Below, piece by piece: positions 3,336 through 47,883 of a stretch of DNA of 64,000 nt (positions within the stretch are counted from its first letter, which is position 1; each line of letters begins with the position of its first letter). The stretch spans positions 1 to 64,000 of the IMG/VR virus record IMGVR_UViG_3300027659_000014; one strand, 5' to 3'. A program made the translations under genes and the position numbers. The DNA is from a virus. Below the pieces are notes generated by a model. It saw only the letters and a list, made by a program, of their open reading frames with translations, had not been told where the DNA came from and ran no database searches.

Positions 3336-3886
3336 CCCCATTGAACATAGACATCATAAAATTCCACACCAAATGAGTTCGCAGTTGCCACAACAAAATC
3401 TTGTATCATATCTTGTATTTCTGAACTAAGTTCTAACCAAAGATCATCCTCAATTGATTCGTGATCAGTTAAATCATATTCCTCACCGTTTGTCATTAAA
3501 GTAACACTACCGTGAGTAATATCAAAATCAACAAATATCTCAACTTGATCATTTTCTTCTCTCACAAAAACATATGGTAATTTAAATGAAAAATCATACC
3601 CACCTGTATGAATACCCTCATCTTCCATATCGTCTGTGGTTAATTCTTTTTTACTAGTTAGATATCTTTCAAAATCTTTTCTAAGGTCATAAACATTACC
3701 CATATATTCTCTGTAGTAACCCATTATGTCCCTTTGTTTTGTACTAAAACCAAGCCTCTTTACCATTTTCTTATCGTATCTTGGCGTATCACCTAATGAT
3801 TTCTGTTCATCCCAAAGATCAAAGAAATATTTCTTTACAGGATTAACTTTTTCTTCCCTTAATATTCTTCTGATTAAATCTTTCAT
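3332..3886 (-). CDS. Hypothetical protein with leader, paralog of 4111-4695
   Basis: Likely start MKDLIRRILREEKVNPVKKYFFDLWDE at 3886, preceded by TATTTATA. Confidence 0.75.
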   Translation of the reverse strand: MKDLIRRILREEKVNPVKKYFFDLWDEQKSLGDTPRYDKKMVKRLGFSTKQRDIMGYYREYMGNVYDLRKDFERYLTSKKELTTDDMEDEGIHTGGYDFSFKLPYVFVREENDQVEIFVDFDITHGSVTLMTNGEEYDLTDHESIEDDLWLELSSEIQDMIQDFVVATANSFGVEFYDVYVQWG

Positions 3887-4110: not shown

Positions 4111-4695
4111 TTAATTTAATATATTCACCACAACATCTTCAATATCTGCACCATATTTTATTCCCATATCAACAATAAAAGATTCTACTATTGTTTTAAG
4201 TTCATCTTGAACATCAAAATAAGAAACCATATCATCAATTTCATTATTACCCCTTGAAATATCATATCTTTTTTGATAATAATTATCCTCAATATCATTA
4301 TACTCCGACATATTAATATAACCATCAAGTATGTCCATATCAGCCAAAATTTCTTTATCTTCACGATGTTTATTAATACGAACATTACTCAACTTAAATG
4401 TAAATTTAAAATCCTCATCATCCCATTGTCTGAAGTTTAATTCGCTAGACTTAAATGTTTTATTTGACAAAAAATCTAATAGGTTTTTTTCACCAATCTC
4501 TTTACCTCCAATGTATTCAATATAGTAATCGTGTATTTCATTTGATTTTTTTTTAAATCCAAGTTTACCAATTAAACTAATGTCAATTGTTGGATATTCC
4601 CCTTCGGATCTTATTTCATCCCAATGGTCAAAGAAGAACTTTTTTATTGGGTTCATTCTTTCTTCCTTCAATATTTTTCTAATTAGCTCTTTCAT
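4111..4695 (-). CDS. Hypothetical protein with leader, paralog of 3332-3886
   Basis: MKELIRKILKEERMNPIKKFFFDHWDE; shares LGF, FxFKL and DxDIxxG segments with its paralog. Confidence 0.75.
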   Translation of the reverse strand: MKELIRKILKEERMNPIKKFFFDHWDEIRSEGEYPTIDISLIGKLGFKKKSNEIHDYYIEYIGGKEIGEKNLLDFLSNKTFKSSELNFRQWDDEDFKFTFKLSNVRINKHREDKEILADMDILDGYINMSEYNDIEDNYYQKRYDISRGNNEIDDMVSYFDVQDELKTIVESFIVDMGIKYGADIEDVVVNILN

Positions 4696-6539: not shown

Positions 6540-7913
6540 CTAATTTTTTTCAAACCACTCTCTCATTTCATCTCTGACAGAATTTAATGCTTTTTTAGCG
6601 TAATGTATAATAGCAGGAAAATAGTTTGTATTGTAGAAATCAATCAGTTGTTCAATTGTTTTAAATTTTTGATCTATATCCATAAAGTTATGGATCTCAA
6701 CATCCTCCTCATATTCTTCTATATCATTCCTATAAAAGTCTATGTCCACAGGTAGTATATTGTTTCCATCCCAAAACATTGTGGCATAACCTACTAATGC
6801 TTCAGTTTTATTTTTACCAAAATAAATTGTAAAATCCCATGTGGATGATTGACGATCAATTGCAACATTTATTTCAACCTCATCATCTTTATAATTAGAA
6901 TTCAATTCTTTTTTATCAAAGATATAATAAGTTAATATATCATTACATTGTTGAGGTGTAAATGATTTTATTTTATTTAAACTTAACTGATCATCATCAG
7001 ATGAAATAAAATCAGGTTTAATAAGTTTATTTGCAGCATTAATCGTCAAACCAAACTTTTTTATTGTGTCATAAACTCCAATCTTATCAACAGATTTTGA
7101 AATCATTTCTTTTGTTCTTTCAAAACTATTTTCAGATAATAATTTTTTATCATTAAACATTAACTTTTTAATTTCATTAACATATCCCGATAAAGGATTT
7201 TTTATATCCAATGGTGAGTTCAATATCCAATCCTCAATTTGAAAAAATCTTTTTAAAATCTGATTAATAGATTCATCCATAAATTCTTTTGGTGGTGTTG
7301 GACTTTCAGTTATTTCATCATTACTATATGATAACTTTTCAGTAACCTGTTTGTTTGCCAATCTATAAATTTTTTGAAATAACTCATCATCATTATTTTC
7401 AAACGCCAATGGGATTTCAAATCTTAACCCAATAGTGTAACTATATCTTGGGTTTTCACTTCTAGATCCTCCCATTATATTTTTATAATAATAAAGTTCA
7501 ATAACAGTATTATATTGACGGAAATTAAGTTCAGTTGGGGGGTCTGTTTTGTAACTAACATAACCAACATTTTCATTGTAAGTCACATCTTGAAATTGTA
7601 TTCTATCATTTCCGTCTCTTTCACTAGTAACAGATGTTTTAAGATATTTTAGAAAGGGTATTCTTTTTTTAAGGTATTCTTCAGTAACTTTAATTGATTT
7701 ATCTTCAATTTCATTAACCATATTATAGTTCTTCCAAAACTTATTTAATTCAGTTTTATTATATTTTTTTGACTTATTATCCCAACCACAAGAATGACAA
7801 AGATTAGGATGTTTATCCTTTTTTTCTTTATCCCAAGAGTGTTTACACTTAGAACACTTTATTTTACCTTCTAAAAGTAGTTTTGATTGTTCTTCAGTTA
7901 TAATAATTTTCAT
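6540..7913 (-). CDS. Modular protein: leader, Zn-ribbon, further uncharacterised domains
   Basis: MKIIITEEQSKLLLE then CSKCKHSW...CHSCG; internal VNEIKKLM...LLSE linker. Confidence 0.7.
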   Translation of the reverse strand: MKIIITEEQSKLLLEGKIKCSKCKHSWDKEKKDKHPNLCHSCGWDNKSKKYNKTELNKFWKNYNMVNEIEDKSIKVTEEYLKKRIPFLKYLKTSVTSERDGNDRIQFQDVTYNENVGYVSYKTDPPTELNFRQYNTVIELYYYKNIMGGSRSENPRYSYTIGLRFEIPLAFENNDDELFQKIYRLANKQVTEKLSYSNDEITESPTPPKEFMDESINQILKRFFQIEDWILNSPLDIKNPLSGYVNEIKKLMFNDKKLLSENSFERTKEMISKSVDKIGVYDTIKKFGLTINAANKLIKPDFISSDDDQLSLNKIKSFTPQQCNDILTYYIFDKKELNSNYKDDEVEINVAIDRQSSTWDFTIYFGKNKTEALVGYATMFWDGNNILPVDIDFYRNDIEEYEEDVEIHNFMDIDQKFKTIEQLIDFYNTNYFPAIIHYAKKALNSVRDEMREWFEKN

Positions 7914-8791
7914 TTATCAATTTCTTTAGTAATATTATCTTTAACCATAAATATTACGTATTTTGAGTTTTTTGGATAAATTACTAAATCAACCGCTTTA
8001 TGTTTTCCATTATTATAATCAATAATAAATGTGTCTAGTTGAGATTCGTTTGACTTTGATTGAATTGTACTTATACCTTTTTTTGTTTTAATAATAAAAT
8101 CAACAGATAACAACATATCAATAAAATCGCCGTTTCCACCTTGATATAAAAGTTCTGCTCCATCACTTTTAAGTTTTTTTATGATATTATTTTCTAACTT
8201 TTCACCATAATCACTGTTAACTTTTATATTGTTTGTAAAGTTAAGTAATTCCATAGGTGAGGTTAAATATGTTGTAAATAATTGTGGAATTTTATGTTTA
8301 TGTTTTAATAAAATATTTTTAGATTCCTCATCAGAATCTTTTGAAAGTAACGAATCAATTATATTTTTACTGTTAAGACTACCGTTAGTATATGACCGAA
8401 TAAGTAATTCAGTTAAAATATCCGCAATATCTGAGTAATTAGTATTTAATTTATTAACATAATTCCAAACACCATTAGAATCTATTTCTCCATTATTGTT
8501 AGTGTAAACAAGTTTTCTATTTGGTAAATTTTTAATAAAATCATTATGTTGTATTTCTGAGATATTACCGTTATTTTTTAATAAATTAATTCCAAAAATA
8601 TGTTTGTCAATCTCTTCCTGCCTTATATTACTTTTTAAAGGATCTAATATCTTATCAATAATTTTTTCTATCCCTAACCCTTCTTTTTTTACTAACTCTA
8701 ACCCTTCTTTTTTGTATACCCAACTTTTGTGTAACCAATACTTAAAACTATTTAATCTTCTTTCTATTTCTAATCTTTTGTTTTCAACCAT
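7910..8791 (-). CDS. Putative PD-(D/E)xK family nuclease
   Basis: GEKLE...FIDMLLSVDFIIK...TIQSK matches the E...D...(Q/E)xK arrangement; TATCTTTG promoter at 8810-8817. Confidence 0.5.
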   Translation of the reverse strand: MVENKRLEIERRLNSFKYWLHKSWVYKKEGLELVKKEGLGIEKIIDKILDPLKSNIRQEEIDKHIFGINLLKNNGNISEIQHNDFIKNLPNRKLVYTNNNGEIDSNGVWNYVNKLNTNYSDIADILTELLIRSYTNGSLNSKNIIDSLLSKDSDEESKNILLKHKHKIPQLFTTYLTSPMELLNFTNNIKVNSDYGEKLENNIIKKLKSDGAELLYQGGNGDFIDMLLSVDFIIKTKKGISTIQSKSNESQLDTFIIDYNNGKHKAVDLVIYPKNSKYVIFMVKDNITKEIDK

Positions 8792-9985: not shown

Positions 9986-10960
9986 ATGGAATATTTAATT
10001 AAAAAAATATTAAAAGAATATGAGGAGGAAGAGGAAAAAGCGTTTCCAAAAAATGTTTCTTTATTTTTTAAATTTTTAAATGGTTATAGAAAAGGAGGAA
10101 ATGTAACACTAAATGCCTTAGGTAATTTTATGTTGTCTAACATGAAAACTTTTGGTTTAAAACCTCAAGAATATCAACACTATTTAAATCTTTATACTCA
10201 AAATTTTAGAGAAGATGGTCAATACATTTTAACCAAAAAAAATGAATTAAATGCCGAATATAATCAATCAAAACCAAAACGAACTTCTAATTCAAAAGCT
10301 TCAGATTTAGTAAGGGATTTACAACCATTTAAAGGATCAAATTTAGAGGGTAAGTGGAAACAGGATTATAAGGGTGATTGGGCATATGTTGTATATTCTT
10401 GGAATTGGTATCCAATATATATGTATAAATATAAAAAATGGTTTGAGGTTGATAATCGATATTCCTCATCAACAGGTAAACATATGTCAGCCACAAGTCC
10501 TGGAAGGTATAACAGTCAGTTAAGAAAAACAATGTTCATTGTTTCACAAGATGAAATGTCTAATCTTTTAAACGGTCAACAAACATCAGAAAATATAATT
10601 AAAAATAAAAATAAAAAATTTATTGACATTGTTGGAAAAGAAATTCATACCTTAAAACAAGTTAGATTAGGTTGGGACCCAAGAGTTAGAATATCATTTA
10701 ATTTTATGAAAGTAAGTATGGAAGAAAATGATCCTCGTATTGATGTTGAAGTTATTAATGTTGATAAAATGGACAATAATAAAATAGATAGATCTTCAGG
10801 TAACTTTTTAAAAGGTGAAATGGTTGGAGTTTCAAAAGAATATATCACCGATTTAATGAAAGAATACATCTCAAGATATTCTTCCTCTATATTAGGAAGA
10901 GATGTTTCAAATGAAATTAGTGTAATCGTAACTTACTTAGATAATCCAAATATAAACTAA
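9986..10960 (+). CDS. Hypothetical protein with LIKKILKE leader
   Basis: MEYLIKKILKEYEEEEE; TATTTATA at 9974-9981. Confidence 0.75.
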   Translation: MEYLIKKILKEYEEEEEKAFPKNVSLFFKFLNGYRKGGNVTLNALGNFMLSNMKTFGLKPQEYQHYLNLYTQNFREDGQYILTKKNELNAEYNQSKPKRTSNSKASDLVRDLQPFKGSNLEGKWKQDYKGDWAYVVYSWNWYPIYMYKYKKWFEVDNRYSSSTGKHMSATSPGRYNSQLRKTMFIVSQDEMSNLLNGQQTSENIIKNKNKKFIDIVGKEIHTLKQVRLGWDPRVRISFNFMKVSMEENDPRIDVEVINVDKMDNNKIDRSSGNFLKGEMVGVSKEYITDLMKEYISRYSSSILGRDVSNEISVIVTYLDNPNIN

Positions 10961-15582: not shown

Positions 15583-16920
15583 TTAATTTGATAATGGTGC
15601 TTTAATTTTTTCGTGTGATCTATAATTACTTAATTGTATATCTTCTTCTAATAAACATTTACAAAAATTGTCATTAGTAAATGAATTAAATATTTTTATT
15701 GCATCTAATAGTCCTATACCACACTCACCTGATTCAGTTGGCCAAAACTCTGTGTTGATGTTTAGGGTTGGTAGTGTATATGGTTCTCTTGTTCGGGTTG
15801 GTACATTCCATTGGTCAATTTCAGAATGTGATAATGTGTTACTGTCTCCACCATTATATATTTGATTAAACATTTCTTGAGTAACCATTTCTCTTCTTTC
15901 ATCTAAATCTAATTCTCTACCAATCTGTTCTTTTGCTTGTTCAACGTGATTCAAATACAAATGTGTATCACCCAAGTTACCAATCAATTCATCAGGAACC
16001 ATATTAACTGACTTGGCAATAATTTCCAATAACAATCCGTAAGACGCAATGTTAAATGGTAAACCTAAGAATGTATCTACTGAACGTTGATTCCACATTA
16101 AAGAGATTGCTCTGGTTGGAATATTAAATTTGTCACATTCTTTATGAACCTCATTATCTAAATCTATACTAACATTACTTTTTATAAAATCAAACAGTTC
16201 ATTTGAATCCAATAAATTAATTTGTTTAGTGTTTTTATACGTGATTCTTTCACTAGCACTCAACTCTCTTGTATAAACTTGAAATCCATAATGACAAGGT
16301 GGAAGAACCATTTGGTCTAATTTACCCACATTCCAAGCATTAACCATTAATCGTCTTGAGTCTGGATTTGTTTTAAGGTCGTTGATTAAGATTGATATTT
16401 GGTCTATAACCTTTTCCCCAACTAATGTATGTAGACCATTGTGTCCTATTGTTACATTTTCACCTGTACCCCAACTTCTCCACTGTTTACCATAAATTTT
16501 TCCAAGGTCACCCCACTTCTTAGCAAACTCATCATCTGTTTTGATTTTGTTGATGAAGTCTTCTTGTGTTTGGTATTTTACTAATTGACCAGCTTGTGAA
16601 GAAATTAAATCAGAGTAGTTTTCTGATTTATAGTCTGGGTTATATATATAATTCTTATAAGCATCACCATCCCAAATATGACAACCATTATCAACAAGGA
16701 ACTTGATGTTTGTATCACCACGTAAGAACCACATTAGTTCTGTAACGATTGATTTCCATGCCATCTTCTTAGTTGTAAGTAATGGAAACCCCTCACTCAT
16801 TTTATGTCTAATCTGTCTACCAAACACTGAAAGAGTACCACCGTTTCTTGTTTCTTTTTTTACACCATTATCAAAGATGTCTTGTAGGAGTGATTGGTAT
16901 TGTTTATCTAGGTTATTCAT
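15583..16920 (-). CDS. thyA: Thymidylate synthase (with insertions)
   Basis: FPLLTTKK, ELMWFLRGDTN, YGKQWR, SRR...AWN, LPPCH, QRSVDTFLGLPFNIASY, GDTHLYLNH. Confidence 0.95.
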   Translation of the reverse strand: MNNLDKQYQSLLQDIFDNGVKKETRNGGTLSVFGRQIRHKMSEGFPLLTTKKMAWKSIVTELMWFLRGDTNIKFLVDNGCHIWDGDAYKNYIYNPDYKSENYSDLISSQAGQLVKYQTQEDFINKIKTDDEFAKKWGDLGKIYGKQWRSWGTGENVTIGHNGLHTLVGEKVIDQISILINDLKTNPDSRRLMVNAWNVGKLDQMVLPPCHYGFQVYTRELSASERITYKNTKQINLLDSNELFDFIKSNVSIDLDNEVHKECDKFNIPTRAISLMWNQRSVDTFLGLPFNIASYGLLLEIIAKSVNMVPDELIGNLGDTHLYLNHVEQAKEQIGRELDLDERREMVTQEMFNQIYNGGDSNTLSHSEIDQWNVPTRTREPYTLPTLNINTEFWPTESGECGIGLLDAIKIFNSFTNDNFCKCLLEEDIQLSNYRSHEKIKAPLSN

Positions 16921-23601: not shown

Positions 23602-25458
23602 TTAGATTACCTCTTCAAACTCAACATCAGATGGTTTACTATTTTCTTCTTCTGTTGTTGTTTGTTCGTACAATAATTGACTAATATTTTGAAATTTAGT
23701 ATTAAGATCATTGATATCATTTTCAATCTTCTCAATATCTTTTTTACCGTAAGATTCTTTTAAACTTTCAAGTGCCGTATTAAGTTCGATTTTTTGATCT
23801 TCGGTTAATTTTTCATCTAAATCTTTGATTGATTTTTCAGTTTGAAAAATTGTACCGTCGGCTCTATTTATAACTTCAGCATCTTCTCTTAGTTTTTTGT
23901 CTTGTTCAACATTTAACTCAGCTTCTTGTTTCATTTTCGCAATCTCTTCTTTTGATAACCCAGAAGATGCCTCAATACGAATTGTTTGTTGTTTGTTTGT
24001 TCCTTTATCTATCGCTGACACATTGATAATTCCATTTGCGTCAATATCAAACGTAACTTCAATTTGTGGAACACCTCTCATTGCCGGTGGAAGACCATCT
24101 AAGTTGAATTTACCAATAGTTTTATTATCGGTTGACATTGCTCTTTCTCCCTGAAGTACGTGGATCTCAACTGTTGGTTGATTATCCACTGCCGTTGAGA
24201 ACACCTGAGATTTTTTAGTCGGGATTGTGGTATTAGACTCAATCAATTTAGTCATAACTCCACCCATAGTTTCAATACCTAAAGATAATGGTGTTACATC
24301 TAATAATAAGACATCTTTAACATCACCAGCTAACACACCTCCTTGGATTGCAGCACCTAACGCAACTACCTCATCAGGGTTAACACCTTTAGAAGGTTCC
24401 TTACCAAAGAATTGTTTAACCGCATCTTGTATTGCTGGAATTCTTGTTGTACCACCAACCAAGATAATTTCATCAACATCAGAAACCTTCATCTTAGCAT
24501 TTTTTAATGCCTTCTTACAAGGTTCAATTGTTCTTTTAACCAAAGAATCAACTAACTGTTCAAATTTAGATTTTGATAATGTTCTTACCAAATGTTTTGG
24601 TAGACCATCCACAGGCATAATATAAGGTAAATTGATCTCACTTGATGAGGTTGAAGATAATTCAACTTTTGCCTTCTCAGCCGCCTCACGTAATCTTTGT
24701 AATGCCATTGGATCCTGAGTTAAATCAAGACCGTTCTCTTCTTTGAATTCACTTACTAACCAATCGATGATTGTTTGATCAAAGTCATCACCACCTAAAT
24801 GAGTATCACCATCAGTTGATAATACTTCAAACACTCCGTCACCTAATTCAAGAATGGACACATCGTGAGTACCACCACCACAGTCAAAAACCACAACTAC
24901 CATATCTTTAGACATTTTATCTAAACCATAAGCTAATGCCGCCGCGGTAGGTTCGTTAATAATACGTTTTACTTCTAAACCCGCAATTTCACCTGCCTCT
25001 TTAGTTGCTTGTCGTTGAGCATCGTTAAAATATGCCGGTACGGTAATAACCGCCTGAGTTACCGTTTCACCCAAATAATCCTCAGCAGTTTGTTTCATCT
25101 TTTGAAGTACCATTGCCGATATTTCTTGTGGTGAATATTGTCGTTTATCTATTTCAACTCTTGGAGATCCTCCATCACCTTTAACAATCTTATACGGTAC
25201 TTTTTTAATCTCTTTTTTAGATTCATCAAAACTTGTCCCCATAAAACGTTTAATTGAACTAATAGTTTTATCCGGATTGGTTACAGCTTGTCGTTTAGCC
25301 GGATCTCCAATTTTTCTTTCACCATCTGTAATAAATCCAATGACGGATGGTGTTGTTCGTTTACCTTCACTATTTGTTATAACTACAGGTTCGTTTCCTT
25401 CCATAACGGCAACACACGAATTTGTTGTTCCTAAATCAATTCCAATAATTTTTCCCAT
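23602..25458 (-). CDS. dnaK: Hsp70 chaperone DnaK
   Basis: [58 protein letters not shown]. Confidence 0.97.
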
Positions 25459-26167: not shown

Positions 26168-26389
26168 TTATCTTAACACGTATCTATGAATTACTACCAC
26201 CAATTTTCCATTAAATAATGCTCGGTCTGTTTGAATGTCAATATCCATCATACCCAAGTCTTCCTTGAGTCTATTAGCTTGGACCCCAACTTCGTGTTCC
26301 GCATCTTTTTCATTTTTGAAGAATCCAAAGTAGGAATCACATTTCCCTGTTTTATCACACACTCCGTAAATCATTTCTCTTTGATCCAT
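26168..26389 (-). CDS. Hypothetical protein
   Basis: 73-aa ORF. Confidence 0.55.
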   Translation of the reverse strand: MDQREMIYGVCDKTGKCDSYFGFFKNEKDAEHEVGVQANRLKEDLGMMDIDIQTDRALFNGKLVVVIHRYVLR

Positions 26390-26546
26390 AACATTCTAAT
26401 TTTATATTTTTAACATTCCACAAATCTTTAACCCCTTCGGTCATATGACAATTATGTTTCTTACCAGTCCTACGACCAAATTCAACAATCATATCATTAT
26501 GACGATTCTTAATAAAGTGCGGACATTCTTTGCATGGAGTTTCCAT
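26355..26546 (-). CDS. Small Cys/His-rich protein
   Basis: PCKECP...HNCHM...ECYG; TATCTTTG promoter at 26551-26558. Confidence 0.6.
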   Translation of the reverse strand: METPCKECPHFIKNRHNDMIVEFGRRTGKKHNCHMTEGVKDLWNVKNIKLECYGSKRNDLRSV

Positions 26547-26593
26547 AAAACAAAGATAGTTATTTTTTTTTAAATAAACAACTATTTATTGGT

Positions 26594-27154
26594 ATGAAAA
26601 TTATTTTAACTGAATCTCAATATTCAACATTATTAAATGAGGTAGTTGATTTTAATTCACTATATAAATCTTTATACCCAAAAATGTATCGACAAGTTTG
26701 TTTGAAATATGCAAATGGAGATGAAGAAAAAGCAAATGATTTTTGTCAATTAGGGTTCATTAAAGTATATCAAAAAATTAGTATGTACAATGAGTCAGGA
26801 CCTATTGAGGCTTGGGTAAAACGTGTAATCACAAATACAGTAATTGATGAATGGAAAAAAGAAAAAAGAAGTCCATACAAAAACCCCATTGACTTTGAAC
26901 GAGCAAATTTAGAAGTAATTGACGACACCCCAGAAGAAAGTTTATATTCATCAAAAGAGATTAAAGATGCCGTTGAAACTTTATATCCTTCACAAAAAAA
27001 AGTATTTGAGATGTTCTTTTTTGAAAATATGAAACATCAAGAAATTGCCGAAGAATTAGGGATTAGTGAAAGCACATCAAAAACTAATTTATTTAAAGCA
27101 AAGGCAAAAGTAAAACAATACCTAATTAATTTAAACAAAAAAAGGGAAGACTAA
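26594..27154 (+). CDS. ECF-type sigma-70 factor with N-terminal leader
   Basis: Region 2 (DFCQLGFIKVY...EAWVKRVITNTVIDEWKK) and region 4 (HQEIAEELGISESTSKTNLFKAK); leader MKIILTESQYSTLLNE. Confidence 0.9.
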   Translation: MKIILTESQYSTLLNEVVDFNSLYKSLYPKMYRQVCLKYANGDEEKANDFCQLGFIKVYQKISMYNESGPIEAWVKRVITNTVIDEWKKEKRSPYKNPIDFERANLEVIDDTPEESLYSSKEIKDAVETLYPSQKKVFEMFFFENMKHQEIAEELGISESTSKTNLFKAKAKVKQYLINLNKKRED

Positions 27155-27166
27155 TCTTCCCCTTTA
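27141..27166. terminator. Bidirectional terminator
   Basis: gggaaga-ctaa-tcttccc flanked by A and T runs, between convergent genes. Confidence 0.7.
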
Positions 27167-27221: not shown

Positions 27222-27701
27222 TTAACAAAAGTCTATTGAATCAGATATTCTTAACCCATCTACATAACGTTCAGGTTTACTCCAAGAATTTCTACTTTCA
27301 GGATATTCCAAATAATATGATTCCGAATCAAAACCATCTTCCTGTCCCCACGAAAAAGACATTTCAATAAATTCATCCTGGCTCAATTCATCCCCATATT
27401 CATCTAAGATACGACCTGATTTAATAAATTCAAGTAATGATTCTTTATCTTTAAAGAACTTATCTTCATTGAAATTCCAAAGAAACTTCCACCCCATACT
27501 ACGTTTACCCAAATGAACTTTTACATTATCAGTAAACTCATCCCAAGGTGACAAATTTTGAAATTGATCAGTACCATCTATTCTAAAATTGTTATTAACT
27601 GATTCCACATTTAATTCCATTTGTCTAATTCTAGACATAAGACGATTTTTCCTTGTCTCCAATTCATTTAAAGTTGGAGATCTATAATAATTTGTTCCCA
27701 T
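27222..27701 (-). CDS. Hypothetical protein
   Basis: MGTNYY...HLGKRSMGWKFLWN...ILDEYG pattern. Confidence 0.65.
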   Translation of the reverse strand: MGTNYYRSPTLNELETRKNRLMSRIRQMELNVESVNNNFRIDGTDQFQNLSPWDEFTDNVKVHLGKRSMGWKFLWNFNEDKFFKDKESLLEFIKSGRILDEYGDELSQDEFIEMSFSWGQEDGFDSESYYLEYPESRNSWSKPERYVDGLRISDSIDFC

Positions 27702-29762: not shown

Positions 29763-30119
29763 ATGGAAGTAATAATAAACAATAATCTTTTTAATGTCAA
29801 ATCTGCAATTACCGATAAAGACATTCAAGATGGAATGAAAGGTAAAAAATTTGATGACGAATTTAACGGTATGTTATTTGTAATGAATGAAGGTACTCAT
29901 TCATTTTGGATGAAGGATTGTACTACTTCTTTAGATATTATTTTTATATCAGATGAATCAATAATAAAAATTTACTCGGATTGTCCACCTTGTCGGGAAC
30001 AAGACGATTCGAAATGTCCCCGATATGATGGTGTTGGTGATATGATCTTAGAGATCAATGGTGGTGACTGTATTAAATACGATATCACCGAGGGTGATTC
30101 AATTTTGATTAAAGAGTGA
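29763..30119 (+). CDS. DUF192 family protein
   Basis: GMLFV...HSFWMKD...LDIIFI...PPC...ILEINGG. Confidence 0.85.
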   Translation: MEVIINNNLFNVKSAITDKDIQDGMKGKKFDDEFNGMLFVMNEGTHSFWMKDCTTSLDIIFISDESIIKIYSDCPPCREQDDSKCPRYDGVGDMILEINGGDCIKYDITEGDSILIKE

Positions 30120-30956
30120 TTTTTGAATTCTAAAAGGTTCAACTCTATCTTTCGCAATTTTTGTGTAATTTGGAGATAACTCAATTCCAACCCAACGTCT
30201 TCCCAATATTTCAGCAGCAACCAAACTAGTTCCGCTACCAGCAAATGGATCTAAAACAATATCATTCTTATACGATAAAATTTTAATTGCCTTTGTTGGG
30301 ATGTCCATTGAGAATGTTGCCTTAGTCATTGACTTAGTATCTGCAAAATAATTCCACTGACCAAAAACAAGTTCCATGAACTCTTTCTTATCATTTTCTT
30401 CATAAACAGTTTTCTTTTTGGTGGTCCCGTCTTCTTGTTCAACATCAGTTGGAACACCTGTCCATTCAGGTTGACCTTTTACTTTTTTAATGTGTTGTTT
30501 TTTATACGCTAAAATTACACACTCTTTTGGGTTATAAATGTATGGGCTAGAAGGACTCATCCAAGAACCCCAAGCGGTTGTTTTACTTCTATGTGGAGAG
30601 TCTTCTTCAAGATCCACAACACCAAAGAAACCATAACCAATTTCTTTCATAATTTGCCACATTTCTGAAAGAAATAAAATTCTACCTCCCTTAGTTTGTC
30701 TATTGATCTCATAAGGAATGTTCAAGGCAATTCGACCGTCATCCTTTAAAACTTTGTAAGCCTCTGTTAACCAATCTTTGGCGAACTCAATATACTCCTC
30801 AAACGCAACATCATCGTCATGTACATCATAATCGATTCCAACACCATAGGGTGGGGATGTTACAATTAAATCCACACAACCTTCAGGAAATGTTTTCATT
30901 ACATCAATACAACTACCATTAATAATTTTACCAGTAATGTCTTCTAAATTCTTCAT
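30099..30956 (-). CDS. DNA methyltransferase, N4-C/N6-A beta class
   Basis: TSPPY catalytic motif precedes VLDPFAGSGT SAM-binding motif. Confidence 0.92.
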   Translation of the reverse strand: MKNLEDITGKIINGSCIDVMKTFPEGCVDLIVTSPPYGVGIDYDVHDDDVAFEEYIEFAKDWLTEAYKVLKDDGRIALNIPYEINRQTKGGRILFLSEMWQIMKEIGYGFFGVVDLEEDSPHRSKTTAWGSWMSPSSPYIYNPKECVILAYKKQHIKKVKGQPEWTGVPTDVEQEDGTTKKKTVYEENDKKEFMELVFGQWNYFADTKSMTKATFSMDIPTKAIKILSYKNDIVLDPFAGSGTSLVAAEILGRRWVGIELSPNYTKIAKDRVEPFRIQKSLFNQN

Positions 30957-31329: not shown

Positions 31330-31599
31330 TTATTTTTCGATGTTTTCAATGTGGTGTTGGATGTACCATAGGGCTTTTCTGAGGTCTTCAAGTTCTGTAT
31401 CTTTTCTTTTTTTTCCTGCACGGCTAATATATTTTATTGCATTTCCTAAACTAAACCCCAAATCCCAAGCATCAATAACTTTTATTGCTTCGTATTCATT
31501 ATTTTTTCCCCCATAATGTTGAGGATGATTTACTTGTTCTATTTTTATCGGTGGACACTGACAAAGTCCGGTTCCACCACATACACATTCTTTATCCAT
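31330..31599 (-). CDS. DUF3310 family protein
   Basis: VNHPQHY...EAIKVI...FSLGNAIKYISRAGKK...EDLRKALWYI. Confidence 0.85.
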   Translation of the reverse strand: MDKECVCGGTGLCQCPPIKIEQVNHPQHYGGKNNEYEAIKVIDAWDLGFSLGNAIKYISRAGKKRKDTELEDLRKALWYIQHHIENIEK

Positions 31600-32723
31600 T
31601 ATTCTTCTTTATATTCGTTTAATAATTCATCATTAGAAATTGTACCATATTTACCACTAAGATTATTTGTGTCAATATTTTTAGTCATCATGGTTTTTAT
31701 ATCGTATATTTGTTTTGTTTCGTGGAGTGATTTAACAATCTCAAAAATAATTTTATATGGGTCTGCGTTTGATCCTGGTCTTCTGTCTTCAAGATATCCT
31801 TTCCATTCCTCTGCGGTTTCTTTTGGAACTCTAATTGATGCTCCTCTATCAGAGACACCCCAACTAAACTTATCTATTGATTGTGTTTCGTATTCACCAG
31901 TAAGTCTTAAATTATTGTTTGAACCGTAAGATTTAATGTGTTGACGATGTCTTGATTCAAATGCGTTAAACAATGACATAAAATATTCTTTATTTCCATC
32001 ATTTCTCATAATATCTGTTGAAAAATTTGTATGAAGACCAGACCCATTCCATTTACCATGTGTAATTGGTTTTGGGTGTAAATCAATGTGGTATGAATAT
32101 TTCTCTGAGGTTTTAAAAAGAAAATATCTTGTCATCCAAAGATCATCTCCACTTTTTAATTTTTCTTTAGATAATACTTGGTATTCCCATTGTCCTAACG
32201 CAACCTCAGCATTAACTCCTGTAATATCAATTCCATAATTTAAACACATATTTAAATGTTTATCAACAAAATCTCTTCCAACAACATATTGACCAACTCC
32301 ACAATAATATTTACCTTGTGGTTCCAAGTTGTTTTGATCATGACCTAAAACGCATTTGTTTTTTTTGTCGTATATAAAGTATTCTTGTTCAAAACCAAAC
32401 CAAAGATCTTCAAAACCTTCACCAATACTTGATCTTTTATTTGACTCGTGTGGTGACCCATCAGAATTTAATACCTCACATAAGACATATACGGTTGATT
32501 CCATATCTTTAAAATAATGTCTAACAGGTTTTAAAATACAATCTGAACTTCCTGTTTCAGCCTGTAATGTTGAAGACCCATCAAAGTTCCAAATTGGGAA
32601 ATTTCCATCAAGAAACGCTTCCTTAATAGATTGATAGTCAACTATTTTTACCTTACTTCTAAGATTTGGTTCTGGTTTATATCCATCTAACCACACATAT
32701 TCTAATTTAACTTTCATATACAA
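31599..32723 (-). CDS. glnII: Glutamine synthetase type II
   Basis: EYVWLDG, WNFDGSST.QA, GFEQEY, PQGKYYCGVG, NAEV..GQWEYQ, WNGSGLHTNFST, RLTG.YET, RGASIR.P, YLEDRRP.SN.DPY. Confidence 0.92.
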   Translation of the reverse strand: MYMKVKLEYVWLDGYKPEPNLRSKVKIVDYQSIKEAFLDGNFPIWNFDGSSTLQAETGSSDCILKPVRHYFKDMESTVYVLCEVLNSDGSPHESNKRSSIGEGFEDLWFGFEQEYFIYDKKNKCVLGHDQNNLEPQGKYYCGVGQYVVGRDFVDKHLNMCLNYGIDITGVNAEVALGQWEYQVLSKEKLKSGDDLWMTRYFLFKTSEKYSYHIDLHPKPITHGKWNGSGLHTNFSTDIMRNDGNKEYFMSLFNAFESRHRQHIKSYGSNNNLRLTGEYETQSIDKFSWGVSDRGASIRVPKETAEEWKGYLEDRRPGSNADPYKIIFEIVKSLHETKQIYDIKTMMTKNIDTNNLSGKYGTISNDELLNEYKEE

Positions 32724-39367: not shown

Positions 39368-41317
39368 TTAAATTGATGTGATTCCTTTGCAATGTTGTTT
39401 CATATTATCGGGGAATTCTACTAAGAAAAAATCTTCATCTATTGTCATATATTTTCGTAAAACTTCCGGAATTATAATATCTGGATTAGATCCCTCAATT
39501 GAAACAAATTCTAAACAGGTTAAATTTACCATTGATTTGGGTAACCTTTCTAACTCAATGTTATTAGTTAAATTTAAAAATGTTAAATTTTTACATTCAC
39601 CAATACTTTCAGGTATACTTTTGATCATATTATCAAGAACCAAAGTATCTAAATTTTTAAATTTACCAATTGATTCTGGTAAATCTAACAGTATTGGGGA
39701 TGATCCTTTATTTTCAATATTAATGAATTCAATATTTTCTGATAGGGATTCAAAAAATTCTTCAAATCCAAACATCACAATAAATTTAGATGGGTCATCT
39801 TTAGGGTACTGTAATATTACTTTGTTATCCGCAAAAATTGTGTTTAGTTCATTTTTATATTTTCGTTTTAAATCTCTAAAATATGGTCTCATTTCTTGAG
39901 ATAATATTACTGCAATATCGTTTTCTGTTACTTCTTTTAAAGTTTTTGTTAGTATTTTTTCTTTTTTCTTAGAAACATAATATGTCATTGCTGCAGGGGC
40001 TAACCTCTTAACCATGTTACCATCTAATTCATTTCCAAGACCAATATATTTTTTTTGTAATTCTTCAGGTAAATTACCAAATATTTCATCACCATTAGTA
40101 ATATGTTTAAAATCAGGACCTCTTAATTCCATCCATAATTCAACCTCATCTACTGATCCTAATTCTTTAACAGGATCAGAGGTTGTAAGATTAAGACTTT
40201 TATATTTGGTTAGTTTTTTTGTGTCTTCATCAGTAAATGGTTTTGGTACAAGATAATCTTCCTTACCTTCAAGACTAGGAACTTTTTGAGTTATTTCTCT
40301 CCAAGATATTTCTTCTCCTCCCGCAAATCGACCGGAATTTGATCTATCCGCTAATTTCATTCTTCCGTACTTATCAACAAGTATAACAACCGCATAATTT
40401 AAATCAGATTCTTCAAGGTTTTTACTAATAACATAATACAATGTTAAGTTTTGATTTAATCTATAATTGTAATAATAATTACTTGATCCTTCCCATGATG
40501 TACACCATCTTCTATCTGGAGCATATTTTTTTCTAATATTAATACACTTATGTTTTTGATCAGGAGCAAAAATTAATATGTTATCATCTTCATATGCAAT
40601 GTCCACGTCACTCACATCAATTTCAGGCATACTATATTCATCTTCTCCAGCCGGAGTATAACCATCAACAATGTGTTCAAATTCATCAAAAGACATAAAT
40701 GAACTTAATTTTGTGTTTAATGGTATTAATAAAAAATTAGTGACAAATCTTTTAACTCTTGGTAGTATAACTGTAAGTGGATCCTCATCAGGAATTTCTT
40801 TTGCGAATTTCTCAGTCATTCTTTTTGTTAATGCATTTTCTCCGTTCTCATTAAATCTATCAAAATATTTTCTAACAAGACTATCAAGTTGTGATGGGTT
40901 TAAATCTGTAACCGGATTTTTAAACGCTTTATCTTCAGGAAACAATGTTTTCAACTCAAAATATTTTTTAATATTTTGTTTTGTTAGTAGTAAATCCGTT
41001 CCTTCGTATTTTGTAACAAATTCTTGAGCAAAACTATCAAGATCTTTTTTAGTTTGTTGTTTTGTGGATTTATCCTTAATTAACTGTTTTAACTTAATAT
41101 AAGTGTGTCTAAAAATATCCTTATCTTCGTTAGCAAAACCACTTTTAAATCTTTCAAAGTCAGAAATAACTTTTTTTATATCATCCTCACTATCGTCTGT
41201 TTCTAATGAAAATTTATCAACTAATCGTTTAATTGTTGATTCAGGATATTCTAATAATATTTTTTGTATATTTAGATTTTCATTAATTATCTTTGACAAA
41301 ATTTTTACTAATTCCAT
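39368..41317 (-). CDS. Large protein with leader, WCT-motif domain and C-terminal leucine-rich repeats
   Basis: MELVKILSKIINE...ILLE; RRWCTSW...YYNY; LPESIGKFKNLDTL / IPESIGECKNLTFLNL / LPKSMVNLTCL. Confidence 0.8.
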   Translation of the reverse strand: MELVKILSKIINENLNIQKILLEYPESTIKRLVDKFSLETDDSEDDIKKVISDFERFKSGFANEDKDIFRHTYIKLKQLIKDKSTKQQTKKDLDSFAQEFVTKYEGTDLLLTKQNIKKYFELKTLFPEDKAFKNPVTDLNPSQLDSLVRKYFDRFNENGENALTKRMTEKFAKEIPDEDPLTVILPRVKRFVTNFLLIPLNTKLSSFMSFDEFEHIVDGYTPAGEDEYSMPEIDVSDVDIAYEDDNILIFAPDQKHKCINIRKKYAPDRRWCTSWEGSSNYYYNYRLNQNLTLYYVISKNLEESDLNYAVVILVDKYGRMKLADRSNSGRFAGGEEISWREITQKVPSLEGKEDYLVPKPFTDEDTKKLTKYKSLNLTTSDPVKELGSVDEVELWMELRGPDFKHITNGDEIFGNLPEELQKKYIGLGNELDGNMVKRLAPAAMTYYVSKKKEKILTKTLKEVTENDIAVILSQEMRPYFRDLKRKYKNELNTIFADNKVILQYPKDDPSKFIVMFGFEEFFESLSENIEFINIENKGSSPILLDLPESIGKFKNLDTLVLDNMIKSIPESIGECKNLTFLNLTNNIELERLPKSMVNLTCLEFVSIEGSNPDIIIPEVLRKYMTIDEDFFLVEFPDNMKQHCKGITSI

Positions 41318-41362: not shown

Positions 41363-42271
41363 TTATACATAAATATGCTTAAACATATCCAATTGTTCTC
41401 CAACTTTTATTTTTTTAACTTTATTTTCACCGTAATTCATAATTAACAATTCTTCCCCCATATTTTGTTTCACCCCACTTTTAGCTGATGCGGCTTTAGC
41501 AAATTCTTTCATCTCCCACGAGTATTCATCTACTGGAAACCATTTTCTTAAAATTGGAAAATCATAATAACTAAGTGAAAATTTTCCTTTAATTTGTTTT
41601 AAAGAATTTGCCAATCTTTCATGGTCATTTCTATCAAAATCATGGTTTGAATAATAGTTCTCTGTTTTCCAATAGGGTGGGTCAACATAAAAATATGTAT
41701 TTGGTGAATCATACATTTCAATTAATATTTGAAAATCTAAATTTTCAACAAATGTTATCTTATCAAAATGATCTCTAAATTCTTTATTTTTTAATTTATC
41801 CATAAATATTAAAATTTTACATCTGTATTTACCTTTATAATCGGTATATTTTGATGTTTCAGGTTTAGATCCAGAAAATACCTGAGTTAATACATACACA
41901 TATTTTGCTGCAACCTCAAATCTATTATTTTCAGTTATATCAATTCCACTATGAAAAACTTCTTGTTGGAACTGATTAAACATTTCTTCGTATTCTGGAG
42001 GTGTATTTTCAACCCCTACCTGTTGACAAGGGTATTTATTTAGTTCATCCCAAAGTCTGTCATAATCTTTAGAACATCTAAATAAATTGGCATTTAATCC
42101 ATTAAAATCATTATAAACAACAGTTTTAAGGTTTGGGTACTCATTTAACTTTGTTTTAAAAAAAACCCAATACATACCACCAAATGGTTCAACATAAGTT
42201 TCAATGTTTTTTGGAATAAATGGTACAATCCATTTACCAATTCGAGCTTTTCCTCCGATGTAAGATATCAT
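41363..42271 (-). CDS. Dam-like DNA adenine methyltransferase (D12 class)
   Basis: YIGGK, YVEPFGG, YND, FYVDPPY motifs. Confidence 0.9.
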   Translation of the reverse strand: MISYIGGKARIGKWIVPFIPKNIETYVEPFGGMYWVFFKTKLNEYPNLKTVVYNDFNGLNANLFRCSKDYDRLWDELNKYPCQQVGVENTPPEYEEMFNQFQQEVFHSGIDITENNRFEVAAKYVYVLTQVFSGSKPETSKYTDYKGKYRCKILIFMDKLKNKEFRDHFDKITFVENLDFQILIEMYDSPNTYFYVDPPYWKTENYYSNHDFDRNDHERLANSLKQIKGKFSLSYYDFPILRKWFPVDEYSWEMKEFAKAASAKSGVKQNMGEELLIMNYGENKVKKIKVGEQLDMFKHIYV

Positions 42272-42351: not shown

Positions 42352-42507
42352 ATGAAAACTGAAGCAACACAAGTAACCGGATGTAAAAAATGTGGACAAT
42401 CGCCAAGTAAAACACAAAAATTTGTTTTTATTACTGGAGCAATAATGTTTTTATTGACAATATATGGTTTAGTTTCTTTAATATATGATATTAAATCACT
42501 ATTTTAA
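42352..42507 (+). CDS. Small CxxC plus TM protein
   Basis: Likely start MKTEATQVTGCKKCGQ after TATTTATT; C-terminal TM. Confidence 0.55.
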   Translation: MKTEATQVTGCKKCGQSPSKTQKFVFITGAIMFLLTIYGLVSLIYDIKSLF

Positions 42508-43430
42508 CTTCTATTGTATTTAATATATTGATTTATTAATAAATCACCATTATGTTGGTTTTTATACCCTTTTCCTTTAACTCTTAATGGTGTTGATGTA
42601 TCAACATTATTTGGGAATTTAACATTTATTTTTCCATCTGGATGTGGAACATCAAATGATCCTCTTTTTAAATCATCAAGATTTAAAAAAGCACTATATA
42701 TAAGATTTGTTCCTAATTTTTCAAAGTTACCCTCATTAGTTGTTTTAACTCTAATAACCAAATTACCATATCCCCCGTTTCTATAATCACCAAGTCCTTG
42801 TAATCTTAAAAACTGACCATCATCAATTCCATGTGGTAGTTGGATCTCGATTGTTTTAATCTCATTTTTTGTTCCTTGTCCCCCACAAGCATAGCAAGCT
42901 GCTGTTGTTATTTTACCAACACCATTACAAGTATTACACGCTACTTGGACTATCTGTATAAACATTCCTGAACCCATTTGTTTTACAACAAATCCTTTTC
43001 CATTACAAACATTACATGGTTTTTTCTCTCCCCCATTTCCATTACATGGAGGACATTTATCTTTTCTGTTATATGTTATACTTTTTTTACCCGCTAAGTA
43101 TGATTCCAATACACCAATATTTATATCAATTATGGTGTCGTGAACTCTATTTTGTGAATTACGACCACCAAACATATTATTCATAATGTCATTCATTGAT
43201 TGACCTCCAAAACCGTTCATGTTAGAAAATGGGTTATTTCGTTGGTTGTTGTATTGTGATCTTTTATTTTCGTCTCCAATAGTATCATATGCAGTTGAGA
43301 TTTTTTTAAACTTTTCCTCATCCCCACCTTTATCGGGGTGATTTTCTTTAACTAAATTCCTATAAGCTTTTTTAATTTCGTCTTGAGTTGCACTTTCTGT
43401 AACTCCTAACACATTATAATAATCTTCCAT
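42504..43430 (-). CDS. dnaJ: DnaJ co-chaperone
   Basis: J-domain with HPD, four CxxCxGxG repeats, C-terminal domain; TATATTTG promoter at 43463-43470. Confidence 0.93.
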   Translation of the reverse strand: MEDYYNVLGVTESATQDEIKKAYRNLVKENHPDKGGDEEKFKKISTAYDTIGDENKRSQYNNQRNNPFSNMNGFGGQSMNDIMNNMFGGRNSQNRVHDTIIDINIGVLESYLAGKKSITYNRKDKCPPCNGNGGEKKPCNVCNGKGFVVKQMGSGMFIQIVQVACNTCNGVGKITTAACYACGGQGTKNEIKTIEIQLPHGIDDGQFLRLQGLGDYRNGGYGNLVIRVKTTNEGNFEKLGTNLIYSAFLNLDDLKRGSFDVPHPDGKINVKFPNNVDTSTPLRVKGKGYKNQHNGDLLINQYIKYNRS

Positions 43431-45879: not shown

Positions 45880-47094
45880 TTATTGAGTCTTTTCTTTGTA
45901 TCCCATTAACGATTTCATTCTGTCAAACTCCTCTTTCAATTTACTTTTACCACCTTTTTTATTTTTTAATGGTATTTCATCATATACTGGAGAAGGTACT
46001 CTTCCGTATGATTCATCTTTCCATTTTGCCAATTGGTCATCTTCAAAATATTTTGAAAATTTATCGTTAACTCCAGTATTTTCAGCATTTGCCCATTCTT
46101 GGTTGTTACCATTAGTAGAACTTCCTTTTATTTGTTTTTCAATTGTTTCTTTTTTAGGTGGTTTTCCGTCGTAATCAGGAATATTCTGTCCCGCAACTTC
46201 CACATTAAAGTCAGTTCCTTCATCATCAATTTCATAAGCCATTTTATCCATTTTAGCCAATTGACCGTTACCTTTTGGAAAATGTTTTGGCTTGGTATTA
46301 AATTTCTCTTTAGATCCACTTTTAGTATAATCTAACATTTTTTTAGAAAATTCTTTCATGTAATTTTCATTTTCTTTACCAGATCCTTTATGTGCTTTTT
46401 CATAAGCTTCCAAACCTGCTGGTGTTTTTCCTTTTTTTATATTACTTTTTTCTTTTTCTTCAATAATAATATTTTCTATCAGATTAATAATCTCGTTCTC
46501 TGTAAACAATTCAGACCCATGACCAGAATTTAACCTATATAAAACATTATTATTTTCTTCCAAGGAAGAATTATCAGTATATTCTTTATTACCAAGTTTG
46601 AATTTTCCACCTTTTGGTGTTTGTCTTAATTTATTCGTGAATGAATTTCCTTCCGCAGTTTCATCTTCTTCCATGTAAGATTTATCACCACACTCCATAC
46701 ATTCACCTTTATTCTCTTTTGTCTCTCTTTTCTTTCTTAAGAGTGTAAAATCTTCTTTATCAATTCTATTATTTTTATTTTTATCTATATTTTTTTGTTT
46801 ACCAAATAATCTTTCGGTTATTTCTTCAATATCAGAATCACTTAATTTATTATTATTTCTATAACTCTTACGAGTTTCTAAAACCTCACTATTTTCTTTA
46901 TATCCACATGATTCACACGCTTCTCCTTCTCTAATTTCTCCACCGCATGATTCACACATTTCTCCTTCAACATAGTCAAATGAAGTTCCAGGTTTATTAA
47001 ATTTTAATTTTTCCATTACTTCTTTTGCTTTATCCTCTAAAGTTTCATTAAGAATTTTTTTTAATAAAACATTATAATAATTGTTATTTTTCAT
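45880..47094 (-). CDS. Charged low-complexity protein with multiple xxE leader-like motifs (possible head core/scaffold)
   Basis: LLKKILNE, LFTENEIINLIENIIIEE and LKEEFDRMKSLM motifs; CxxC pairs; TATTTATA upstream. Confidence 0.65.
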   Translation of the reverse strand: MKNNNYYNVLLKKILNETLEDKAKEVMEKLKFNKPGTSFDYVEGEMCESCGGEIREGEACESCGYKENSEVLETRKSYRNNNKLSDSDIEEITERLFGKQKNIDKNKNNRIDKEDFTLLRKKRETKENKGECMECGDKSYMEEDETAEGNSFTNKLRQTPKGGKFKLGNKEYTDNSSLEENNNVLYRLNSGHGSELFTENEIINLIENIIIEEKEKSNIKKGKTPAGLEAYEKAHKGSGKENENYMKEFSKKMLDYTKSGSKEKFNTKPKHFPKGNGQLAKMDKMAYEIDDEGTDFNVEVAGQNIPDYDGKPPKKETIEKQIKGSSTNGNNQEWANAENTGVNDKFSKYFEDDQLAKWKDESYGRVPSPVYDEIPLKNKKGGKSKLKEEFDRMKSLMGYKEKTQ

Positions 47095-47115
47095 TTTCTT
47101 GTTTATATATAAATA

Positions 47116-47883
47116 TCAATGTTTATTCAATTTTTCCATTTCTAAATAAATTATATTTCTAACATAGTTTTCTGTTATTCCATAAGACTCACTTATATTT
47201 GTTATAACTCTTTTTAATCCTTTGTTTTCAAAAATTTTAAGTGCGTTAATATCCCCTTGATTACAATAAGGAAACTTTTTACATTTTTTCTTAACTTGGA
47301 CAAATTTACCTCCAGGAATTTGAGTGTTACGGCTTGGTCCCCAATCTTTTTTGTTGGTTGACTTTGCCCATATCGAGGGTCCTGAGTATTGACCTGATGA
47401 TACGGTACTTGCGCCTTCTTTTGTTTCAAACTTTTTAGGTCTATTACAAGTACAATCTTTTTCTATGTTTTTACATTTTTCACAATATTTCTTTTCTTTA
47501 ATTTCTTGAGATGAAAAAAGTGCTCCACCTGAATATGCTCCGGCAGATACCGATCCAGTTTCTTTAGTTTCTTCTTTTTTACTTTTAGTTATTTCTAATA
47601 ATGAATGTAGAAAATCGTTAATATCTTCAGGATTTTCTAACATTTTTTTTAATTCAGTTCTTGTTTTACTTACTGACATTTTGTTTTTAACTAATGTTAG
47701 TATGTCATTTAAATTAGTTTTTTTATCTTTTAAATAATCTTGTGGTTTTGTTTTTTTCTTTTTTTCTTTTTCTTCTTCCATTGGTTGGAAGTTTTTTCTT
47801 TGTTTGGACAAGTCAACCCCATTTACCCCCAATCCGTTTGCGGCATTATTATATTCTTTATTAAACATGTTAATCATATCCAT
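47116..47883 (-). CDS. Hypothetical protein with duplicated KE(T/G)xxxS(A/S)GxYSG motif
   Basis: KETGSVSAGAYSG and KEGASTVSSGQYSG; CKKFPYCNQG. Confidence 0.65.
   Translation of the reverse strand: MDMINMFNKEYNNAANGLGVNGVDLSKQRKNFQPMEEEKEKKKKTKPQDYLKDKKTNLNDILTLVKNKMSVSKTRTELKKMLENPEDINDFLHSLLEITKSKKEETKETGSVSAGAYSGGALFSSQEIKEKKYCEKCKNIEKDCTCNRPKKFETKEGASTVSSGQYSGPSIWAKSTNKKDWGPSRNTQIPGGKFVQVKKKCKKFPYCNQGDINALKIFENKGLKRVITNISESYGITENYVRNIIYLEMEKLNKH

Follow-up and report, generated by a model that had tools for sequence, protein, structure and literature searches.

A portable N-terminal tag on a phage ECF sigma factor, a candidate capsid cargo of a T4-like jumbo phage

The window analysed here, 64,000 nucleotides of a 106,180-bp IMG/VR virus record (28.7% G+C), encodes an intact two-domain ECF-type sigma factor whose leader is a genuine, portable N-terminal peptide tag. 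The sigma gene is an accessory gene in a cassette, which consists of a late-type promoter (TATTTAT, 4 nt, ATG) and a leader of 16–18 codons. By analogy with the internal proteins of phage T4, the sigma factor may be a capsid cargo, packaged and injected as T4 cargo is; we hold this as a serious possibility, at a little less than even confidence.

The sigma factor, its control region and its genome

Pfam searches of the 186-aa product (P0001) returned region 2, region 4 and ECF models only, and the protein matched PHROG 1740 ('RNA polymerase sigma factor') with an E-value of 5e-25. Regions 1.1 and 3 are both absent, as is characteristic of ECF (group 4) sigma factors. An AF2 model built from 127 sequences (mean pLDDT 81.5) has two confident helical domains, with pLDDT above 90 in region 2, and between them a disordered, low-confidence linker at residues 95–114. 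When the model was compared with VIA-align to AlgU, sigmaE, SigH, SigL and SigW, Z-scores were 11–12; region 2 of sigmaE superimposed with an rmsd of 2.4 Å over 81 residues, and sigmaE region 4 bound to −35 DNA gave a Z-score of 11.6. An intact ECF sigma with regions 2 and 4 had been called in an initial sequence-only reading of the window, and Pfam, PHROG 1740 and AF2 agree with that call, in which all coordinates check (Table 1). The same reading described the gene as standing alone on the plus strand, and it is indeed the sole called plus-strand gene of at least 100 aa between 10960 and 29763. Many ECF sigma factors, though not all, have a cognate anti-sigma gene beside them and recognize their own AAC/CGT-type promoter. 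A cognate anti-sigma gene was not found next to this one; the claim that none is adjacent stands in the sense that the two neighbours, 26355–26546 and 27222–27701, match no Pfam family.

Table 1. Features of the sigma locus and related genes (positions in the window unless a locus is given)
Feature	Position	Strand	Remark
ECF (group 4) sigma factor P0001	26594–27154	+	Pfam, PHROG, AF2 model, VIA-align
Leader MKIILTESQYSTLLNE, codons 1–16	26594–26641	+	I/L-T-E at residues 5–7, L-N-E at 14–16
Sigma region 2, residues 24–92	26663–26869	+	PF04542 (Sigma70_r2), E 1.3e-11, above cut-off
Sigma region 4, residues 122–172	26957–27109	+	PF08281 (Sigma70_r4_2), E 4e-15, above cut-off
Divergent control region, 47 bp, between zinc-finger gene (−) and sigma gene	26547–26593		T9 run at 26563–26571
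TATCTTTG, host-type Bacteroidetes-like −7 box (TAnnTTTG)	26551–26558	−	4 nt before ATG of gene 26355–26546
TATTTATT, late-type promoter core	26583–26590	+	then GGT, then ATG at 26594
G+C-rich hairpin overlapping last codons and stop of sigma gene	27140–27165		fold −10.6 kcal/mol, z −1.8
P0002, unrelated, 457 aa, same leader class then Cys4 zinc-ribbon	6540–7913	−	ATG overlaps stop of upstream gene
Second-leader-class proteins	1611–2213, 3332–3886, 4111–4695, 9986–10960	−, −, −, +	N-terminus comparison
Lysozyme-like protein, 273 aa, LysM-like C-terminus (read by eye)	L157:2238–3059; G002:C1 about 46998–47819	−	sigma promoter and leader

The control region separates the sigma gene from a divergent minus-strand gene for a 63-aa zinc-finger product (26355–26546). 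Fourteen IMG/VR loci retain it, the most divergent at 61% protein identity, as does a syntenic lysozyme locus of the relative G002 (see below). As read initially, TATTTATT lies 3 nt upstream of the sigma ATG. At the other end of the gene, the proposal that sigma has its own terminator held in part: the hairpin does cover the sigma stop, but the plus-strand tail behind it is weak (CUUUAAAGG only), and its proper T-tail is on the minus strand, where it serves the convergent gene 27222–27701. As a terminator the hairpin therefore suits the convergent gene better than sigma, and a shared or bidirectional terminator is the better description.

Of all 7-mers, TATTTAT has the strongest intergenic enrichment in the record (6.1-fold). 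It lies 4–23 nt upstream of 21–25 genes, among them tail fibre, baseplate and giant tail genes, several leader-bearing genes and sigma, and no fixed −35 element accompanies it in this record. A separate box, TAnnTTTG, precedes 20 genes, including RNR, DnaJ and the SbcCD operon, and the two gene sets hardly overlap. In G002, 96 of 377 genes have TATTTAT in the 40 nt before them; these include genes in the head-module region (beside the gp21 and gp23 matches) and large genes of structural size, such as a homologue of the 1906-aa protein. From this gene content we infer that TATTTAT marks a late-type promoter class, in agreement with the sequence-only reading: it precedes tail and baseplate genes in the record and head-region genes in G002.

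Which promoters the sigma factor itself serves is a separate matter. We considered that it might recognize TATTTAT and so regulate its own gene, and rejected this idea. The complete relatives G001, G002 and G003 gave no match to sigma or to Sigma70_r4_2, yet G002 uses TATTTAT widely; the sigma factor is thus not the factor that reads TATTTAT, and its target promoters, as judged from these genomes, are not of that class. The canonical ECF promoter, GAAC-N15-18-CGT, was not found upstream of any gene in the record, nor was a third enriched intergenic motif that might represent a sigma target.

The record is 36% complete according to CheckV and carries genes for a baseplate wedge protein, a UvsX-like recombinase, a gp32-like SSB and DnaB, as well as SbcC-like genes. 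Its baseplate wedge protein is 82% identical to that of G002, 68% to that of G001, 65% to that of G005 and 63% to that of G003. The genomes G001–G003 measure 281–296 kb, and G001–G004 are 96–100% complete. All four of the latter encode Peptidase_S77 (the gp21-type prohead protease) and a Gp23 capsid protein; in G001–G003 the protease scores above cut-off and the T4 gp23-family capsid protein has an E-value of about 1e-64. The prohead protease of this clade matches 2188 T4-like phage records. For G004, which has no baseplate match, the tie to the record is the sigma homologue alone, at 43% identity. Head genes of the gp21 and gp23 types were found in the relatives and not in the 36%-complete record itself, and the fragments G006–G010 (6–25% complete), which carry sigma orthologues, showed no capsid gene. 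Considering the T4-type head genes and sizes of the relatives together with baseplate identity, the source is, as judged from gene content, a T4-like jumbo phage of about 300 kb, the head genes of which would lie beyond this fragment. A crAss-like phage with a 2181-aa virion polymerase was considered and rejected: the 2181-aa protein matches a tail family, the gene set is T4-like and the record is a fragment of a jumbo phage. A cultured close relative was not found, the best baseplate match being 28% identical. The assignment of the host to Bacteroidota in the sequence-only reading is not supported as written, its basis being the TAnnTTTG boxes only.

Several other genes of these phages deserve mention. 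In G004, a complete 269-kb relative with a sigma homologue, the gp21-type protease and the gp23-type capsid gene are each present in two copies at distant sites (G004:C1 31291–34946 and 233494–237899). The window encodes a 445-aa thymidylate synthase (15583–16920, minus strand) that matches Pfam in two stretches, the best one aligning residues 6–218 to positions 1–155 of a 266-position profile; its unusual length suggests an insertion. There are also a glutamine-synthetase-like gene (31599–32717, minus strand; Gln-synt_N and Gln-synt_C) and two DNA methyltransferase genes (30099–30956 and 41363–42271, both minus strand) of the N6_N4_Mtase and D12 classes.

A leader shared by unrelated proteins

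The sigma leader MKIILTESQYSTLLNE resembles MKIIITEEQSKLLLEG of P0002, as the sequence-only reading had pointed out, with nine of 16 residues identical. The ungapped BLOSUM62 score over residues 2–16 is 33, which makes this the third-best pair of N-termini in the genome, while the best of 30,688 internal windows used as a control reaches 28. In the 106-kb record, a strict DNA pattern for MKII[ILFM]TExQ matches no genes but those of sigma and P0002; the reversed control pattern has zero matches in the record and zero in five genomes. In a tblastn search against cultured phages, P0002 had no match. Its gene belongs to an operon headed by 7910–8791, which has a TAnnTTTG box, and in this operon TATTTAT lies 33 nt before the ATG. 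The Cys4 zinc-ribbon of P0002 (...C.KC.H.W....D..P..CH.CGW; 7820–7913, minus strand) follows directly after the leader, and a zinc-ribbon is found in the same place in short IMG/VR proteins (L028, L033, L036, L040, L041, L056, L099, L120 and L122).

The resemblance extends far beyond this pair. A scan of IMG/VR for DNA encoding MKII[ILFM]TExQ identified at least 120 loci with at least 154 gene starts, and the leader heads at least 140 distinct genes in at least 55 families; among the matches listed, the 122 complete tagged proteins group into 55 families by their bodies. Lysozyme-LysM proteins, DHH phosphoesterases and zinc-ribbon proteins are among them. The consensus is MKIIITE-x-Q-(Y/L/F)-x-x-(L/I)-x-x-E. 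Across the at least 140 genes, conservation extends to positions that the search pattern left free, with Y, L or F at position 10, L or I at position 13 in 93%, and abundant E at positions 15–16. Meanwhile, the Ile, Thr and Ser codons of the tag vary, with Ser encoded by both TCN and AGY. Since codons vary while residues stay the same, selection acts on the peptide and not on the DNA. The same variation argues against conservation at the nucleotide level, whether for translation start or through gene conversion, which we had considered as a candidate explanation. The earlier suggestion of a transferable leader on unrelated proteins is thereby upheld. Searching the literature for the leader strings, we found no paper that prints them.

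Among sigma orthologues the leader is nearly invariant across about 60 clusters of 45–97% identity, and down to 45% identity it ranks among the best-conserved parts of the protein. Synonymous changes occur at T6, S8 and E16. Residue E16 is replaced by K in four clusters (P0054, P0058, P0059 and P0061) and by Q in one (P0067). At the end of the tag, a motif [LIVMF]xE ending at positions 13–18 is present in 85 of 122 tagged proteins, compared with 9–24 of 122 in shifted control windows, and this enrichment has to be read with the caveat that hydrophobic-x-Glu is very short and the proteome rich in K, I, L, E and N.

Tagged genes also have a characteristic promoter arrangement. Among the listed loci, 45% of tagged genes have TATTTAT in the 35 nt ahead of them, compared with 24% of other genes (p = 3e-6), and 43 of 52 leader genes elsewhere show the arrangement TATTTAT-N4/5-ATG. 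A spacing of 4–5 nt suggests leaderless mRNAs, and the sigma mRNA, as its sequence indicates, is probably leaderless. The IMG/VR scan revealed tandem arrays of three to five tagged genes. In G002, about 19 tagged genes are spread genome-wide with no clustering at the head module; one of them lies two genes upstream of the prohead protease.

Leader and sigma body are separable. Distant sigma homologues (37–47% identity) start either with the MKIIITE leader or with a second class of leader, M(R/K)x(L/I)I(R/K)(R/K)(I/V)L(K/R)EE, which is found in P0073, P0074, P0076, P0089 and P0091. In the form M(R/K/E)x(L/I)I(K/R)(K/R)IL(K/R)E(E/Y), this second class heads four window proteins without a Pfam family (Table 1), so that both leader classes also head unrelated proteins in this genome. 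Other homologues (P0090, P0093 and P0095) are leaderless and start at the sigma body, and in P0077 (DHH-sigma, 640 aa), P0078, P0083 and P0084 another domain is fused before it. A hydrophobic-hydrophobic-x-Glu sequence stands 2–12 residues before the sigma body in these four fusions and in P0074; P0089 and P0092 fit the pattern poorly. The domain fused ahead of the sigma homologue in P0077 is a DHH phosphoesterase. Proteins of about 500 aa from a DHH-type phosphoesterase family with the motif YFHQDLDGV also carry the MKIIITE-class leader themselves (L021, L024, L037, L043, L116, L121 and L127).

The sequence-only reading had regarded the leader as an addition to a cellular ECF sigma factor. 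Its absence from cellular homologues is confirmed, as their N-termini have a different sequence, ...E(L/I)I.GC..(D/N)..AQ..LY. However, there is no extra length. Residue 27 of the query aligns with residue 26 of the SigW chain, and in about 100 cellular-type homologues query residue 22 aligns with residues 17–29, which excludes an extra N-terminal extension. Because cellular N-termini are equally long and different, the leader replaces the usual first helix; a MAFFT alignment places residues 9–16 opposite cellular helix 1. In the AF2 model the leader has a pLDDT of about 60 with a helix at residues 7–14, and it is neither docked nor freed; VIA-align alignments begin at residue 13–14 after trimming.

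Occupying the place of the first helix of region 2, the leader could be structural. This bears on the reading that the protein is an ordinary intracellular phage sigma factor, active in the cell that makes it and directing host RNA polymerase late in infection to a small set of phage or host promoters, with a leader that either is a lineage-specific substitute for the first helix or is a late-protein tag with a non-capsid role in stability, folding or expression level. We give it a real chance, distinctly below even. The equal N-terminal length and the position opposite helix 1 speak for it, ECF sigma factors work without packaging, and ECF-like sigma factors are common in phages: apart from the PHROG 1740 match, the 'sigma-W factor' genes of crAss-like phages share the architecture of region 2 and region 4 at 26–31% identity, although their tblastn matches start at query residues 4–27, mostly 20–24, and do not cover the leader. 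Yet an ordinary sigma factor leaves unexplained why the same peptide stands on at least 55 unrelated families, why two leader classes are swapped, why leaderless homologues exist and why hydrophobic-x-E is enriched at the leader end. Nor is the protein the factor for the promoter class that it carries, since G002 uses TATTTAT without an ECF sigma.

The accessory nature of the gene is also apparent at the syntenic site in G002, the closest complete relative. There, the same divergent promoter and a leader, MKIVITENQHKMLIESVV, precede a body of the lysozyme-LysM type. Similarity of the DNA between the window and G002 spans the intergenic region and ends near codon 18, which identifies the leader end as a module boundary. 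With sigma absent from G001–G003 and a lysozyme in its place in G002, the sigma gene is accessory cassette cargo and not a late-promoter factor. The lysozyme-LysM family is the second largest among the listed tagged proteins, with 13 members.

An exchange of sigma and lysozyme bodies behind identical promoter-plus-leader DNA at one locus might also mean that the promoter and the first 16–18 codons are simply a recombination cassette, providing DNA homology for the shuffling of accessory genes (compare the regulatory cassettes of T4-type phages and the IP locus), in which case the peptide would be functionless in sigma. The tandem arrays of tagged genes would fit, as would short DNA matches to window positions 26540–26635 at several further sites in G002 and G001. 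However, synonymous codons differ freely, TCN against AGY for Ser, while the residues are fixed; the leader is conserved among sigma orthologues to the extent described above; and more than half of the tagged genes at the listed loci lack the TATTTAT promoter. A functionless peptide is therefore unlikely. Shuffling through a cassette is in any case compatible with a functional tag and not an alternative to one.

Capsid cargo in the manner of T4

T4 offers a precedent for short N-terminal peptides with a function in the capsid. Its prohead protease gp21 cleaves after L/I-x-Glu and removes N-terminal propeptides that range from 7 residues in Alt to 65 in gp23; the first 10 residues of IPIII are enough to load foreign proteins into the T4 head and thence into the next cell; and the cargo protein Alt modifies host RNA polymerase (PMC9026906; PMC3012670). 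In the present clade, the capsid protein contains ...YENQASFLINE/ATGEG... (slash, candidate cut) ahead of the part that matches mature T4 gp23 in the alignment, and FLINE/A would be the equivalent of the cut that frees the 65-residue propeptide of T4 gp23. The sigma leader ends in LLNE/VV, and LTE is also present at residues 5–7. In T4 IPIII, exchange of the Glu for Asp prevents trimming while loading still proceeds.

If the tag acts like the T4 capsid targeting sequence, sigma would be made late as a pro-protein and would dock through the tag on the prohead scaffolding core. The gp21-type prohead protease would then cleave after LLNE16, perhaps also after ITE7. What is left of sigma would begin near V17, where the conserved body has its first helix, and would be ejected with the DNA; once inside the next cell, it could associate with host core RNA polymerase ahead of any phage gene expression. 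That a capsid-loaded pro-sigma is held by its tag on the prohead core, possibly in an inactive state, and after trimming and injection captures the core RNA polymerase of the host in the opening seconds of infection seems to us quite possible, at clearly less than an even chance. Several findings speak against capsid cargo: E16 is substituted in five orthologue clusters, the end motif is very short, the leader could be structural, tagged genes in G002 are scattered away from the head module, and the record yielded no candidate target promoter for sigma.

Alternatively, the tag could be a recognition peptide for another partner, such as a phage Hsp70/DnaJ pair, a modifying enzyme or a degradation system, which would time the activity of tagged proteins. 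The leader does consist of a hydrophobic stretch beside Lys followed by an amphipathic helix, and a gene for a full-length Hsp70-like, DnaK-like protein of 618 aa (23602–25458, minus strand) ends 1.1 kb from the sigma gene. A protein encoded at 42504–43430 (minus strand) starts with MEDYYNVLGV..., which resembles a J domain and makes it a candidate DnaJ partner. As for a modifying enzyme, none was identified with Pfam among 30 neighbouring or tagged proteins, and recognition by a partner of any of these kinds leaves the Glu enrichment at the tag end unexplained. We consider this reading improbable.

Relation to known systems

The likeness to T4 IPI, IPII, IPIII and Alt has several components (PMC9026906; PMC3012670). 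In both cases a short N-terminal peptide is common to unrelated accessory proteins, the peptide ends in L/I-x-Glu, the tagged genes are hypervariable and shuffled, and a gp21-family protease accompanies a gp23 capsid protein, here in relatives of the same clade. Moreover, Alt retunes the RNA polymerase of the host after its injection, and a sigma cargo would be alike in this respect. The differences are in the sequence of the tag and its length (16 residues here, 10 in T4), in the far larger number of families, with about 19 tagged genes in one complete genome, and in the cargo, as a sigma factor is no known T4 cargo type.

A short N-terminal pro-sequence on a sigma factor, as proposed here, has a cellular parallel in pro-sigma-E and pro-sigma-K of Bacillus subtilis, where removal of the pro-sequence by a dedicated protease determines when and where the factor is active. 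Both belong to the group 3 sporulation sigma factors and are cut by the membrane proteases SpoIIGA and SpoIVFB. To our knowledge, their pro-sequence is not common to other proteins, and no capsid is involved.

Injection of a transcription protein together with the genome, to set the infection programme going, has a parallel in phi14:2 gp66 and the N4 vRNAP, which are whole RNA polymerases delivered by the virion and independent of the host enzyme (10.1101/2020.03.07.982082). The present protein differs in being a specificity subunit that needs host core polymerase, and its phage is not crAss-like. A search of the literature for a virion-packaged sigma factor returned nothing relevant. If the proposal is true, virion delivery would be known for a sigma-family protein for the first time, and it would be a new route to takeover of host transcription, beside a modifier (T4 Alt) and a whole polymerase (N4 and crAss-like phages). 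Sigma would then be one item in a plug-in cargo system together with lysozyme, DHH phosphoesterase and zinc-ribbon proteins. A tag that acts as a capsid-loading signal would also mean that widespread uncultured aquatic jumbo phages have generalized the three-protein trick of T4, such that any gene placed behind a 16-codon leader becomes injected cargo; in principle, the tag could load foreign proteins into capsids. If, on the other hand, the tag has another role, sigma would be an ordinary accessory phage regulator and the finding a modest one.

With the tag as a simple sequence marker, lists of candidate injected effectors can also be drawn up from metagenomes. A tagged family of about 148 aa (MKIIITENQYKLIKENISLKEKL...) has at least seven copies in G002 (C1 78977, 116814, 166712, 238754–242200 and 283644), four of which stand in tandem, each preceded by TATTTATCAAT. 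In the window, looser leader-like N-termini are seen in two further minus-strand products, one with PG_binding_1 (781–1602) and one with leucine-rich repeats (39368–41317).
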